Source: Octopus vulgaris
Taxonomy: Eukaryota
DNA: 64,000 nucleotides
NCBI GenBank assembly: GCA_951406725.2
Contig: OX597814.1
Coordinates: forward strand, 137,640,001 to 137,704,000
Direction of reading: 5' to 3'
Below are positions 5,744 through 63,597 of the stretch, in pieces (within the stretch, counting starts at the first letter, position 1; each line of letters starts with the position of its first letter). Position numbers and translations under genes: made by a program. Below the pieces are notes generated by a model. The model saw nothing but the letters and a program-made list of their open reading frames with translations, was not told the DNA's origin and did not search any database.

Positions 5744-6299
5744 CAAAGCTTGACATAACAAATAGGCGACGTACCAAATCTTACAGCTGTTTCTGATCTG
5801 TTGCCAAAGACTATCTATAAGTAATCACGAAAATAAAGTTCTTCATCTTCATAGGACATTCGAATTAAGGCACAGATATTCATCAGAGTAAAAGACAAGA
5901 AGAGCATCCAATATAAACAAAGGGAAGAAGGAAAAGGAAAGAAAACATGACCTAGAAAAGAAATCTAGTAGCCCAATATATTAAAAGCATATAATCTACC
6001 ATTCTTGGGGCTACGAGGTCCGTAGGTGAAAAACTTTTTACCTACGGACCTTGTAACCCCAAGAATGGTAGATTATATGCTTTTAATATATTGGGCTACT
6101 AGATTTCTTTTCTAGGTCATGTTTTCTTTCCTTTTCCTTCTTCCCTTTGTTTATACTGGATGCTCTTGTTTTTCACTCTGATGAAGCTCCAAGAAGATGA
6201 AGAACTTTATTTTCGCAATTATTTATAGACAGCTTTTTGCAACGGATCGGAAACAGCCATAAGATTTGTTACATCACCTATTTGTTATGTCAAGTTTTG
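5744..6299. repeat. Foldback element with hammerhead-like motif in each arm (Penelope-like)
   Basis: Centre about 6034; 5912-6010 is the exact reverse complement of 6057-6155; CTGATGA..GAAACAGCTGTA on minus (5886 to 5782), decayed copy on plus (6178-6261). Confidence 0.9.
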
Positions 6300-6896
6300 T
6301 ATTAAAAAATAAGCTATAAATATGTTCCAATCGATGTGTTTGTTAATCTGAGGTTTTCTTCATTTTTTGATTATTTGTACATATATATATATATATGTAA
6401 ATGTTTGTGTGTCTGTGTTTGTCACCCCACCATCGCTTGACAACCGATGCTGGTTCGTTTACATCCCCATAACTTGGTGGTTCGGCAAAAGAAACTGATA
6501 GAATAAGAACAAGGCTTACAAAGAATAAGTCCTGGGGTCAATTTGTTTGACTAAAGGCAGTGCTCTAGCATGACCACAGTCAAATGACTGAAACAAGTAA
6601 AAGTATAAAAGAATAAAGGTTGAAATGCAAAATTGACCCCTGCGGATTTTGAACTCAGAGCTTAGAAATAGATCAAATATCACTAAGCATTTTGTCCCAC
6701 ATACTAATAATTCTACAAGTTCACTGCCCTAAATTAGTCATTGAATGATGTGTTATATTTTTTAATTCAGTTGTATTTCCTTTTAGTATCTTAATTCTCC
6801 ATGCAAGACATATATTGTTGCTTATCTTATAACTTGTTTTTAAAAAATATATTTTATATACAGAATTAAAATGTTTTTCCTCTTATTAATTTTCAG

Positions 6897-7007
6897 TAAA
6901 ATATAGTCCAAAGTCAAAGGACGTTCCTTCATCAGAAGTTGTACAAGAGTTACAAGCTGAAAAGAACTACCTTAAATGTCAAGATGTTGTTTTATATGTA
7001 TTAGAAG
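6897..7007 (+). CDS. Arrestin-domain gene exon (VKYSPKSKDVPSSEVVQELQAEKNYLKCQDVVLYVLE)
   Basis: ttttcag| acceptor, AAG|GTTGGT donor, 111 nt, phase 1-1, open; AEKNYL matches the arrestin 'E.Y' motif. Confidence 0.85.
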
Positions 7008-7299
7008 GTTGGTCACATTAATGTTTTTACCTTAAGCACTAAGTTATTTTCTTAAGTTCTTTATCCAACTCCTTCAATATGTTATTAGTAGTACTTTTTT
7101 TGTAAGAGTTAAAACTTTAATATGACTGAACTTAAAATCAAATACACAAAGCATGACAATATGTTGAAGACTGACTAGCAATATGTATCACCACCTCTGT
7201 TCCACTCCACAGCACTTTGGGCATTTGTCTTCTTCTATAGCCCTGGGCTCATCAAAATCTTGTGAGTGGATTTGGTAGATGGAAATGGAAAGAAGTCCA

Positions 7300-7593
7300 T
7301 TGCATATATATATATATATGTGTGTGTGTATATATATATATACATATATATATACATATATATATACATACATATATATATATATATATATACACACACA
7401 TACACACACACACACACACACACACACACAAAAAAAAAAAAATATATATATATATATATATATATATATATATATATATATATATATATATATATATATA
7501 TATATATATATACATATATATATACATATATATATACATATATATATACATATATATATACATATATATCATCATCATCATCATCATCATCAT
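7300..7593. repeat. Compound (TA)n/(CA)n/(CAT)n microsatellite
   Basis: Directly visible. Confidence 0.98.
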
Positions 7594-8665
7594 CGTTTAA
7601 CGTCCGTTTTCCGCGCTAGCACGGGTTGGACGGTTCGACCGGGGTCTGGGAAGCCAGGGGCCGCTCCAGGCTCCAGTCTGATCTGGCAGAGTTTCTACGG
7701 CTGGATGCCCTTCCTAACGCCAACCACTCCGTGAGTGGAGTGGGTGCTTTTACGTGCCACCTGCACAGGGGCCGGGGGGTCCGGCATCGGTCACGATCGG
7801 TTCGAGCTTTTAACGTGCCAGCGGCACGGGGGCAACCGGATCCGGGGTACTTTGGGGATCCGGGGTACTTTGAATGGGTAGGGGGTATGTGGAATTGCTG
7901 CAGAAAGCAGCCCGGGTCTTTGCAGTCACAGCATATCTCCAGAGATCTCGGTCCTTCGCCATTGCCTCAGTGAGGCCCAATGCTCTGAGGTCATGCTTGA
8001 CTACCTCATCCCATGTCTTCCTGGGTCTACCTCTCCCCCTGATACCTTCAACTGTTTGGGAGTGGCACTTCTTCACACATCTCTCTTCATCCATCCGCAG
8101 CACATGACCATACCATCGCAAGCGTCGCTCTTGCACACCACATCTGATGCTTCTTATATCCAGCATTTCTCTCAGGATGCACACTGACACTACACATCCA
8201 GCGGATCATGCTAGCTTCATTTCTTTCAAGTCTACGCATGTCCTCTGCAGTCACAGCCCATGTTTCATTACCGTGAAGCATGGCAGTTCGCACACATGCA
8301 TCATACAATCTACCTTTTGCTCTGAGGGAGAGACCTTTTGTTGCCAGTAGGAGCTTTCTGAACTTTGCTCAGGCTATTCGTATTCTAGTGGTGATACTCT
8401 CTGTGCATCCACCTCTGCTACTAACTTGGTCACCCAGGTAGCGGAAACTATCAACTACTTCTAGTTTCTCTCCCTGGAGTGTGATGGAATCTGTTTTCTG
8501 AGTGTCTGTTGTGTCTATTGTCCCTGTGCATCTGCCGCACATAAAAGCTATCTTATCTGTTAATTTCCCTTTAATGTTGCTGCACCTCTTATGTGTCCAT
8601 AGCTTACATTGGGTGCATCTTATGGAGTTTCTACCTGTACCTTTCCTACAGATTGAGCAGGGCCA
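7569..8665 (-). mobile_element. RTE-clade LINE 3' fragment with PHD-like finger and (GAT)n tail
   Basis: Minus strand WPCSIC..CTQCKLWTHKRC..CGRC, VDSFRYLG, LYDACVRTAMLHGNETW, RLRWYGHVLRM, RGRGRPRKTW. Confidence 0.92.
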
Positions 8666-9165
8666 TACATATATATATATATATATATATATATATATAT
8701 ATATATATATACATATATATATACATATATATATACATATATATATACACACACACACACACACACACACACACACACACACACACACACACACACACAC
8801 ACACACACACACACACACACACACACACACACACACACACACACACACACACACACACACACACACACACACACACACACACATATACACATATACACAC
8901 ACACACACACACACACACACACACACACACACACACACACACACACACACACACACACACACACACACACACACACACACACACACACACACACACACAC
9001 ACACACACACACAAAATATATATATATATATATATACATATATACACACACACACACATATATATATACACACACACACACACACACACACACACACACA
9101 CACACACACACACACACACACATATATATATATATATATATATATACACACATATATATATATAT
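8666..9165. repeat. Long (TA)n/(CA)n microsatellite
   Basis: Directly visible; source of the spurious HT/YI/CV ORFs. Confidence 0.98.
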
Positions 9166-61330: not shown

Positions 61331-61619
61331 CCCTTCATGAATTAATAAATATATATATGTATACATATATATGTGTGTGTGTGTGTATATATATGTATAT
61401 ATAGATGAAATGTCGTGAGCAGCTTTTGCTGTCTTAGAACCTTGATTAAAAGCAAAACGAAGGAGGTGTTGAAAATGCTCGTTTTTCTTAACTTGACGTT
61501 CCATTTTAATGATCTGAGAATAAACAAAAATTAACTAAAATTAACTAGAAAAAAACAAAATAGATTCCAAAATGATTCAAAAATAGAATTCTTGAAAAAA
61601 TAGATTCCAAAATTTAAAA

Positions 61620-63090
61620 ACGCAATAAATTCCAAAGTCTAAAAAAATTGTGGGAACTTAGTTGCCAACCCAATAGATGAACGAATCGACAACCTCCAAG
61701 TAACTTACCCTTTACAAAAATTTTAGGTGGGTTACAAACAGCACCACATGCAGGTTGATACATTACAACTGTTTTTTTCAAGTTGATGGTCAAGCCAAAA
61801 TCACACAAGCCGAGTCAAATGCAGATACAAGAGATTGCAGACCTGTTTCAGAATGACTGACAAGATCGCAATTATCAGCATACAAAAGTTCCTTAATGAG
61901 TGAAGTAAAAAACCTTCATTTTGAATTTCAGTGTAGTCAGATTGAAAACATTCTCTGTTGTTCGATATTTTATGTAAATACCCTCCTCAGAGTTTTGAAA
62001 AGCATGTGACAACACAACAGCAAAGTATATTGCAAAGAGGGTGGGTGCATCAAGGTCTCCTTGCTTTACTCCATTTTCCATGGCAAAAGATTCAGAGAGC
62101 CTACCACCAAAGTTAACTCTAGCTTTCATATCTTGATGCAAAGCCCTGATCATGTTTACAAATTTTTCTGGGCAACCTATTTTCCTTAGAATTAGCCACA
62201 GAGCATTTCAATTAACAGTATCGAATGTTTTGCTCAAATCAACAAAGCAATGGTATAGAGCAAGATTATGTTCAATGCACTTTTCTTCTAATTGTCTGAC
62301 AGTAAAGATACAATCAGCTGTGCCCTTGGAGGAACGAAAACCACACTGAGACTTAGACACTATATTTGGAACTTAGACATTTGGTATTTAGACATTCTAA
62401 CAAAATGTGGGCAAGTACCTTTCCAACCACAGGCAAAAACAAAATCCCACGAAAATTACCACACAGATCCTTTGGCCCTGATTTATACAAGGAGACTAAA
62501 ATAGCATCAACCTAGTCTTGAGGCACTTTCTCAGTTCTCCAACAGTGACAAATTAATATATTTAAGTTTAAACATTTTGTCACCCCCATATTTCAAGACT
62601 TCTGCACAGATTCCATTGGACCCTGGAGACTTATTGTTATTCAGCTTATTCACAGCTAAATAAATGTCATTTAGAGTTGGTTCAAATGCTATATTTCTTC
62701 TATAACTGGAAGGTGTTCGATTTTTTCTATCATCCTCATGTCAGCAGATGATTGTCTATCCAAAAGTGCAGGAAAATGCTCCACCCAGCACTTATGAATA
62801 GAAGCGGTGCCAGTCAGAAGCAAATGTCTATTTGCTGATCTCACTGGAGCTATGGAAGAAGATTTTGGGCCATATACCTTCTTAACATAAGAGGACAAAC
62901 CCTTGGCATCATTTTTATCAGCTGCTTCTTGTGTCCCTTTTGCTCTATCATTCCACCATTCCTATTTAAGTTTTCTTAGAGCAGTCTGCACTTTCCTTTT
63001 CAGCTTTCTTTAAGCTTAGTTTGAATTGGGGTTCAAAGACTGAGAAAGAAGTGTAATGCCTAAGTTTTGTTTTTCTAATATTGATTAGTA
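61620..63090 (-). mobile_element. Decayed RTE (BovB-like) LINE ORF2 fragment
   Basis: MIRALHQDMKARV, NGVKQGDLDAPTLF, LLYADNCDL, FGLTINLKKT, KKVYGP motifs in broken frames. Confidence 0.9.
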
Positions 63091-63239
63091 AAGAATATCA
63101 TGAAATGTGGAGTCAGCAGTTGTAACGATAAAAATTTGGCTATGGTGAATCGAATCCACTTCATGCTTGCAAGATCCACTACATGTATGCTTGTTAATAC
63201 TTCCAATCAGTTAAGATGAGAAACCATGAGAGGCACTGA

Positions 63240-63443
63240 ATGCATGCATGCATGTATGTATGTATGTATGTATGTATGTATGTATGTATGTATGTATGTA
63301 TGTATGTATGTATGTATGTATGTATGTGTGTGTGTGTGTGTATGTATACACATATACGTATATAATATATATTTAGACACACACACCAATATCTATCTAT
63401 CTATCTATCTATCTATCTATCTATCTATCTATCTATCTATCTA
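63240..63443. repeat. (ATGT)n/(TG)n/(CTAT)n microsatellites
   Basis: Directly visible. Confidence 0.97.
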
Positions 63444-63448
63444 ACTAT

Positions 63449-63597
63449 GTATTTTATTAATAAAACTGCAAAAACAGGAAAAGATCCCCAAAACATCACA
63501 AAAATTGTTACTCAGAGTTTCATGTCCCCCTTCGATGGACGTGTAACTCTGAGTAACAGTTTTTGTGATGATTTTGCAGCTTTATTAATAAAGCATA
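63449..63597. repeat. Short foldback containing only the 3' half of a hammerhead motif
   Basis: Arms centred near 63531; GAAACTCTGAGTA on minus at about 63509-63521. Confidence 0.75.

Follow-up and report, generated by a model that had tools for sequence, protein, structure and literature searches.

The 64,000 nucleotides of the Octopus vulgaris genome considered here (the window; contig OX597814.1, positions 137,640,001 to 137,704,000 of the forward strand) contain ten foldbacks, each a pair of inverted arms about an axis of symmetry, and they raise the question of what kind of element leaves such structures behind. A first-pass annotation of the window had connected the foldbacks through sequences resembling the hammerhead ribozyme and had suggested a link to the Penelope-like elements (PLEs). 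We find that hammerhead-like motifs in this DNA are enriched far beyond chance and are read from the axis outward, and that most of the foldbacks (about eight of the ten) are likely the dead, heavily 5'-truncated, hammerhead-bearing pseudo-long terminal repeat (pLTR) ends of several families of endonuclease-positive (EN+) PLEs, probably of the Neptune type. Such a foldback is the scar of an insertion and not a mobile unit. The architecture has already been described in print, and the elements reported here add members to a known type of PLE insertion.

The ten foldbacks and their hammerhead motifs

The inverted repeats, which we number E1 to E10 in their order along the window, all proved real in self-BLAST and arm alignments, at about the positions first assigned to them. 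A de novo scan for inverted repeats (microsatellites masked, spacer below 400 nt) returned 33 rows, the strong ones being the nine compact elements already recognized and one pair of dispersed-repeat copies at 29317-29907; for strong compact foldbacks, the set of elements known from the window is thus nearly complete. We dropped a weaker inverted pair (37928-38414), which matches a dispersed repeat. The arms of the ten foldbacks have diverged from each other by 4.0-22.3%, mainly by transitions (92 of 129 substitutions), so that they are genuine insertions of different ages and not mirror artefacts of the assembly. Spacers measure 2-35 nt, with the exceptions of E9 (210 nt) and E2. It had been stated that no primary sequence is shared except within one pair, and this holds for the most part: E4 (41936-42151) and E8 (59897-60195) form one family with 79% identity, but E3 and E10 are also alike over 21 nt (20/21) at the 3' half of the hammerhead. 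The window is AT-rich (GC 32-44%), with many microsatellites and repeats, and no host exon was recognized in it.

The relaxed and graded descriptors with which we scored the motifs were devised after the elements had been inspected, and the P values are generous. The relaxed descriptor, which accepts any Watson-Crick 3:8 pair and 0-1 extra base beside stem II and counts scores of at least 8 as hits, found 6 motifs, three of them in foldbacks, against a mean of 0.125 (maximum 2) in 40 block shuffles. The graded score, which permits a long stem II, yielded 8 motifs at a cut-off of at least 19, against 0.4 (maximum 2) in 30 shuffles; within the window the motifs are thus commoner than in shuffled sequence. 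Five of these 8 lie in foldbacks, which occupy 5.3% of the window (binomial P=2e-5). Of the 42 CTGANGA cores in the window, only 5 lie inside arms. When a graded type I score was computed on the two-arm columns of each element (150 shuffles and 150 genomic segments each), the outward reading was significant in E1, E2, E7, E8 and E9 (P<=0.013), borderline in E5 (0.033/0.053) and not significant in E3, E4, E6 and E10; the inward control was significant in one of the ten, E6 (0.020/0.013). The 3' half (GAAA-palindrome-UH) by itself was significant in E3, E7 and E10 (P<=0.005 of 200), its inward control once (E9, 0.045), and the 3' part of the hammerhead is present in E4 by homology with E8. These scores support a tally of full but decayed type I motifs in five of the ten foldbacks, halves or borderline motifs in four, and none that is convincing in E6. 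The excess and the polarity across the window remain large despite the post hoc scoring.

The motifs had been described as lying near the axis, which is correct for E4, E5, E7, E8, E9 and E10 but not for E1 and E2: the core is found 2-16 nt from the inner end in E5, E7, E8 and E9, the axis falls inside stem II in E4 and E10, and the core is 148 nt from the inner end in E1 and ~230 nt in E2. Every core position is present, under the relaxed descriptor, in the right arm of E7 (C3:G8) and in both arms of E8 (G3:C8); the others are decayed. E7 (57853-58130) has arms at 57853-57956 and 57967-58070, a 10-nt spacer, a 60-nt right tail and (TA)n on both sides, and its hammerhead (57971-58021, forward strand) carries an ATG at the start of stem II. 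E1 (5744-6299; arms 5744-6032 and 6035-6299, 2-nt spacer) has in its left arm a reverse-strand hammerhead with a long stem II (core 5886, GAAA-CAGCTG-UA at 5793-5782); 20 nt of stem II have been lost from the copy in the right arm (core 6178). E3 (14333-14665; arms 14333-14457 and 14493-14609, 35-nt spacer, 56-nt right tail, (TA)n on both sides) keeps 3' halves on both strands, at 14382-14370 (reverse) and 14559-14571 (forward), together with a decayed reverse-strand core (14420-14413) that is deleted in the right arm. E5 (46675-46983; arms 46718-46847 and 46850-46983, 2-nt spacer, 43-nt left tail, right end on (TA)n) shows a borderline decayed motif of the U3:A8 type beginning at the axis.

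In E9 (60884-61348, (TA)n on both sides) a short arm (60884-60997) faces a long copy (60998-61330) that is followed by an 18-nt tail; the spacer is the first 210 nt of the long copy and holds a near-complete hammerhead (core 61008) with a U3.G8 wobble and a 4-bp stem III. The spacer of E3 (14458-14492) resembles, by eye, ~25 nt after the E9 cleavage site (~61058-61090), although BLAST was silent and MAFFT left the two unaligned. E10 (63449-63670; arms 63449-63527 and 63537-63597) has its axis in stem II, a reverse-strand 3' half at 63521-63509, its left end on (TATC)n and a right-side extension of ~70 nt whose end is approximate. In E6 (57150-57465) the left arm (57150-57255) pairs with 57264-57361 at 77%; after 51 nt there follows, beyond this older right arm, a 98% inverted copy of the outer left arm (57413-57465).

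The element E2, first delimited as 10135-13712, is a foldback of ~700 nt and not a 3.6-kb element. Its reverse-strand left arm is split into an outer part (10128-10336; hammerhead N3 at 10281, 3' half 10218-10207, (TA)n 134 nt beyond) and an inner part (12015-12137, pairing with 13362-13477) by a nested, 5'-truncated long interspersed element (LINE) of the jockey/CR1 type (10337-12014, reverse strand, (TAA)n end). A second nested repeat, the 3' end of another LINE with 62-bp tandem units and an (ATG)n end, lies at the axis (12138-13336, forward strand); related copies occur elsewhere in the window, and we take it to be an RTE element. The right arm (13337-13717, forward strand, core 13565) abuts (TA)n. 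The jockey/CR1-type LINE has RVT_1 matches at 10460-11389 and 11393-11947 (Pfam, E 5e-10 and 3e-14), and the nearest named relatives of its reverse transcriptase (RT) are found in Octopus (73-83% identity). The assertion that none of the inverted repeats encodes protein was therefore wrong for 10135-13712 as delimited, which contains two RVT_1 open reading frames (ORFs), but these belong to the nested LINE and not to the foldback.

Tails, targets and the origin of the second arm

The mode of origin of the foldbacks can be read most directly from the E4/E8 family. E4 (41878-42151; arms 41936-42031 and 42044-42151, axis inside the hammerhead) has a 58-nt left tail followed by (TA)n, and its right end adjoins (TG)n. 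E8 (59886-60204; arms 59897-59995 and 60005-60103, 9-nt spacer) has a 92-nt right tail reaching to 60195, and comparison of its flanks reveals a 9-bp target duplication (59886-59894 and 60196-60204; P=0.004 in comparison with genomic windows), one copy of which is separated from the short arm by 2 nt and the other of which lies beyond the tail. The left extension of E4 is homologous to the right extension of E8 and both end at the same point, which identifies the extra stretch beyond the arm as element sequence, i.e. a tail. The two elements have the same tail and the same long-arm end, but their axes differ (inside the motif in E4, just upstream of it in E8), as do their short-arm ends, by about 40 nt; the foldback was thus made at insertion and is not the transposing unit. 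In both E4 and E8, the two arms have common variants that are missing from the other element, so that the arms of each derive from one template in one event. The proposal that the foldbacks form a population of short non-coding ribozyme retroelements in a class of their own is not supported, since the axis and short-arm end of the multi-copy family differ from copy to copy.

The one-sided tail is proven by homology for E4 and E8, and for E2, E3, E5, E7 and E9 it is indicated by the position of (TA)n; E1, E6 and E10 show no clear tail. Tracts of (TA)4 or longer lie within 10 nt of five of the ten elements, where 0.96 would be expected (P=0.0014, 5000 placements), and each of these five has a second (TA)n tract 18-134 nt beyond its opposite arm; E1, E6 and E8 have no abutting microsatellite. 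No terminal motif common to the different families was found. A chain of insertions on shared (TA)n occupies 9975-14665 and 14671-15965 and consists of E2, a repeat at about 13718-14099 (presumably Helitron-like), a solo hammerhead piece, E3 and a mariner remnant; the (TA)n acts there as an insertion hot spot.

The link to PLEs is backed by the hammerhead enrichment with its polarity, the one-sided tails, the (TA)n targeting and the target duplication, and each of these has counterparts in the literature. PLE insertions have been described with an inverted 5'-truncated copy, a one-sided tail of 30-40 bp and a (TA)n bias (Craig et al., PMC8557442), and with head-to-head pLTRs, junction palindromes and 8-10 bp duplications, for which self-priming was proposed (Arkhipova et al., PMC3846280). 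Dual minimal hammerheads 100-700 bp apart on opposite strands have been ascribed to truncated PLEs (Cervera and de la Pena, PMC4209133), and the motifs here match PLE minimal hammerheads in style, with a palindromic helix III, an extra base after A9 and U3:A8 variants (PMC4209133). Biochemical work has demonstrated that both strands are nicked and extended, that the tail is defined by internal starts of RT, that uncleaved RNA serves as the main template and that an ORF starts at stem II (Frangieh et al., PMC11167929). In coleoids, the expanded repeat families include Penelope (PMC8967140). The four motifs from the window that were sought in the Craig 2021 supplement (PMC8557442) are absent from it, and these elements are described in no title or abstract opening among the four papers listed for octopus, Penelope and hammerheads.

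The foldbacks resemble the EN+ PLEs (Penelope/Poseidon and Neptune; PMC8557442, PMC3846280, PMC2377424) in their head-to-head inverted arms, junction palindrome, one-sided tail, target duplication of ~9 bp, microsatellite or AT-rich targets and hammerhead within the repeat; they differ in that both copies are cut down to the pLTR, no ORF is attached and the tails often exceed 30-40 nt, and the clade assignment is tentative. With the dispersed minimal hammerheads of truncated PLEs, which include the dual motifs of Schistosoma mansoni (PMC4209133), they have in common the type I topology, palindromic helix III, extra base after A9, U3:A8 pairs and the occurrence of many unrelated families in one genome, paired on opposite strands, whereas the window also contains a G3:C8 pair (E8), stem II inserts of 55-85 nt (E1, E2 and the motif at 9300), helices III of 6-10 nt, and an extra base before G12 (E1, E7 and E9). 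The Naiad PLEs, which are present in Octopus (PMC8557442 File S1), likewise have (TA)n targets, inverted truncated copies and a tail, but they are without canonical hammerheads (PMC8557442), so that the motif-bearing elements are unlikely to be Naiads; the motif-poor E6 may be one.

On this evidence, a PLE insertion could have given rise to a foldback in the following manner. A GIY-YIG endonuclease, whose involvement is surmised from the observed target preference, would nick AT-rich or (TA)n DNA. Reverse transcription would then start internally, 100-300 nt downstream of the hammerhead, as internal starts are known for a PLE (PMC11167929), and thereby fix the end of the tail, in keeping with the tail and fixed long-arm end seen here. 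Synthesis would pass an uncleaved hammerhead and halt early, within 80-380 nt; the arms do reach 5' of the cleavage site. The same event and the same template would provide the second, inverted copy, which ends short of the tail. Its priming might be achieved by folding back on the single template, which we regard as slightly the more probable chemistry because the short-arm end is not fixed in E4/E8, or from both target strands, which seems somewhat unlikely; both models predict the 3-nt microhomology that can be read by hand at the E4 junction. The arms would subsequently decay, take up nested insertions (as in E2) and sometimes copy each other at the DNA level. Such copying is suggested by E1, whose inner 98 nt (within 5894-6160) are without mismatch between arms (P=0.00037) while the outer arms have diverged by ~13%, and by E6, with 98% outer arms around a 77% inner pair. 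The identical run in E1 may represent gene conversion near the palindrome axis.

Several observations weigh against a PLE origin. Rfam recognized no hammerhead in the window, either at the gathering score (0 matches) or at E<=10, where the 137 rows are mostly microsatellite or hairpin matches to miRNA models. A strict descriptor found intact hammerheads in none of the ten foldbacks, its single motif in the window (at 9300) lying outside them, so that the claim that most foldbacks carry whole or partial motifs stands as an enrichment (five full and four half or borderline) but overstated their completeness. Of six isolated motifs, only that of E8, in which stems I and II form, has a significantly better fold than its shuffles (z -3.2); the relaxed scores are post hoc, and shuffles control their leniency but not every post hoc choice. 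E1 lies off (TA)n and has no clear tail or target duplication; for E6 neither (TA)n nor a target duplication was found, its score is higher inward than outward, and its left arm ends within the putative stem II. The tails (18-92 nt, 134 nt in E2) depart from the published 30-40, and an origin of the second arm at each insertion rests on one family with two foldbacks.

A parental element is likewise missing from the window. We compared 272 translations with Pfam (271 of the 495 complexity-filtered frames of at least 45 aa, namely those of at least 58 aa, plus the 100-aa list); matches with useful scores were to LINE endonuclease and RT, mariner and DDE pieces, and none was to a PLE RT or GIY-YIG remnant, although short decayed fragments would escape such a search. 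Peptide searches from frames of E7, E9 and 9583-9786 gave no match, and no family could be tied to a parent. The frames in question are a 68-aa frame at 9583-9786 and, in E7, a hydrophobic frame of 51 codons (57979-58131) that opens at the stem II ATG and runs through the tail, with one stop in the right arm and none in the left; the failure to find homologues is a weak negative in both cases. Downstream of the motif, the frames in 10 arms or solo pieces are open only in E7 and the 9300 piece. The E9 spacer was considered as a GIY-YIG C-terminus and rejected: its 31-aa peptide had 0 matches in 1.84 billion representatives, and the same bases form the hammerhead. An 18-nt E8 pattern occurred at 28 loci in prokaryotic genomes, none aligning over more than 24 nt, and these are chance matches.

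A doubtful alternative to truncated PLEs is that the transposing units were short non-autonomous RNAs (like solo pLTRs or retrozymes, ~200-350 nt, starting at the 5' edge of the hammerhead) that had their own transcription and were mobilized in trans by PLE proteins, as in the reading of the first-pass annotation, the foldback still being made at insertion. In its favor, six of the ten foldbacks have their inner end inside stem II or no more than 16 nt from the core, none of ~15 hammerhead-bearing pieces has a coding remnant attached, and both non-autonomous PLE derivatives and PLE-derived retrozymes have been published (PMC8557442; bioRxiv 10.64898/2026.07.22.740005). However, E1 and E2 reach 148 and ~230 nt upstream of the core, and by a hand estimate steep random truncation, together with the selection of motif-bearing arms, gives similar clustering, so that an excess of 5' ends at the motif over random truncation is not demonstrated. 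The E7 frame that opens at the stem II ATG and, in its left-arm version, continues through the tail is reminiscent of an autonomous anole element (PMC11167929). The non-LTR retrozymes of animals (PMC7229834; bioRxiv 10.64898/2026.07.22.740005) are also short, apparently non-coding, PLE-related and equipped with type I hammerheads, but they form direct tandem arrays with a hammerhead in each unit and circular RNAs, whereas the window contains inverted pairs and solos with decayed motifs; no direct tandem array with a complete hammerhead per unit occurs among its 74 tandem-repeat rows or in the graded-motif list.

It is improbable that solo pLTR fragments were inserted first and acquired the inverted arm later at the DNA level, by template switching in replication or break repair beside (TA)n. 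Solo copies do exist (14158-14318 and 47783-47898), the identical run of E1 is difficult to reconcile with uniform decay, and the last 53 nt of E6 are a recent inverted copy of its left arm that seems to run 8 nt past the stretch homologous to the older right arm. Against this sequence of events, the E8 target duplication brackets both arms, which hence arrived jointly; the duplicated arms of E4, E7 and E8 stop within the element and do not extend into the flanks; and the head-to-head geometry of every oriented case fits PLE integration (PMC3846280). Weakest of all is the notion that the foldbacks are palindromic miniature inverted-repeat transposable elements (MITEs) of TA-targeting DNA transposons with hammerhead-like motifs by chance, which is very improbable even though Tc1/mariner elements likewise target TA, the (TA)n beside E3 also harbors a mariner remnant that has terminal inverted repeats (14671-15965), palindromic MITEs are heavily edited in a frog (PMC5625713) and the outer 53-bp arms of E6 are 98% identical, for a one-sided tail specific to the family makes the ends asymmetric, the target duplication of E8 takes in that tail instead of abutting both arms, axis and size vary between copies of the only testable family (E4, E8 and a solo copy), there is no terminal motif in common, and the enrichment and polarity of the motifs are far above chance. 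MITEs with terminal inverted repeats, raised in the first-pass annotation as the competing identity, are accordingly rejected for E4 and E8 and unlikely for the other tailed elements.

The exchanged core pair of E8

In both arms of E8 (60012, forward strand; 59988, reverse strand), a stem I of 7 bp and a stem II of 5 bp flank the sequence GTGAACA, and GAAA, a 4-nt palindrome and UU come next; the core would thus have a G3:C8 pair. Two transversions placed exactly at the paired positions 3 and 8 are unlikely to be the result of drift. Position 8 of E4 is T, one transition from C, and an old solo copy of the family (47783-47898, forward strand, 68% identity) keeps G3 by alignment, the rest of its core and its stem II having been lost. 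The two arms of E8 represent one template, and the support for G3:C8 consists of one full and two partial copies; we think it fairly likely that this core is family-wide.

Natural U3:A8 cores have been published (PMC3088659, PMC4209133), and the corresponding C3G/G8C change has been engineered, with partial rescue (PMC11167929). We found no natural G3:C8 in print, only this engineered variant, within a literature whose subscription papers and figures lay largely outside the search; the supplement text of Cervera 2014, in which 2 of 9 GUGA passages are visible and the figure columns are lost, mentions neither Octopus, nor G3-C8, nor the helix III motif of E1 and E2. The natural core swap in the 59897-60195 family is possibly new, though it might already be known. 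If it is family-wide, it would provide natural covariation evidence for selection on the catalytic fold of PLE hammerheads, for which cleavage is dispensable for insertion in vitro (PMC11167929), and would imply that hammerheads are undercounted by the standard CUGANGA descriptors. Two acceptor-like CAG sites also arise through the swap, one at position 3 after a U-rich tract and one at 8-9-G. It is quite improbable that splicing at these sites switches the putative ribozyme, which would echo the Drosophila virilis Penelope intron that ends at helix I; that intron lies 46 nt after the start site (Schostak et al., PMC2377424).

Read-through RNA and neighboring repeats

The predicted folds of five foldbacks amount to -156 to -377 kcal/mol, those of three isolated motifs to -13 to -18. 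In read-through RNA, the motif would be masked by a duplex of 100-270 bp; E9 is the exception, its motif being located in the spacer. The sequestration of the ribozyme by the antisense arm, as originally envisaged, thus holds on thermodynamic grounds for most of the elements, but not for E9, and it is of little consequence: single minimal PLE hammerheads show no monomer cleavage in vitro (PMC4209133), so that the motifs probably need dimers or protein to cleave, and sequestration is likely to be a side effect. Use of the predicted double-stranded RNA (dsRNA) by ADAR or Dicer is plausible. A palindromic Harbinger MITE of Xenopus tropicalis (PMC5625713) is comparable as a self-folding repeat of ~200 bp that, needing no partner copy, would serve as a substrate for ADAR, but it is a DNA transposon with a palindromic consensus, whereas here the palindrome is made at each insertion from an asymmetric unit.

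Octopus exhibits both exceptional hyper-editing and an exceptional share of near-perfect dsRNA-forming loci (PMC5625713), and the share of the latter that PLE foldbacks contribute is a directly testable question. Given that 64 kb contain some ten foldbacks as well as several solo motifs, PLE scars that are invisible to Rfam could be very numerous in octopus, and junctions in their thousands would allow fold-back to be told from two-strand priming. A more far-reaching scenario, which we consider unlikely, is that short PLE-mobilized ribozyme RNAs with 5' ends at the hammerhead edge have radiated and are routinely written into the genome as self-made hairpins, that PLE integration is a main source of the near-perfect dsRNA underlying hyper-editing in octopus, and that the E4/E8 family has a natural G3:C8 core. 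At least 10 copies of an abundant repeat resembling a short interspersed element occur in both orientations at 17960-56900 (e.g. 23685-24078, 24722-25132 and 46235-46666); they give many more inverted pairs within 5 kb, which would also form dsRNA.

Hammerhead-bearing pieces are also found outside the ten foldbacks. At 9166-9975, two unrelated pieces lie head to head between (TA)n tracts, with a canonical core at 9300 (reverse strand) and a U3:A8 core at 9851 (forward strand); they are the same kind of element as the foldbacks, yet not a foldback, and may have arisen either from a twin insertion of heterologous pieces or from independent hits, two in number, in the same microsatellite. The core at 9300 is the best motif in the window, and the left piece has an internal direct repeat of 70 nt (80%). 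A solo hammerhead-bearing insertion (14158-14318, forward strand, core 14204) lies between (TA)n tracts and adjoins E3. Weaker minimal motifs in the style of Poseidon (CTGANGA-A-stem II-GAAA-CG-UH type) at 494, 6935 and 29049, all on the reverse strand, have scores of 16.2-16.6, inside the shuffle range.

Other repeats in the window include decayed transposase-like frames at 53277-55144, which have no Pfam match above the cut-off and presumably derive from a DNA transposon; a weak palindrome at 53277-53386 contains two CTGATGA words. Decayed RT fragments at 61896-62961 (reverse strand) match RVT_1 weakly (E 0.007), and by their motifs we take them to be LINE-like instead of PLE-like. A near-complete LINE ORF2 with Exo_endo_phos_2 and RVT_1 domains, interrupted by stops, occupies 2549-5014.

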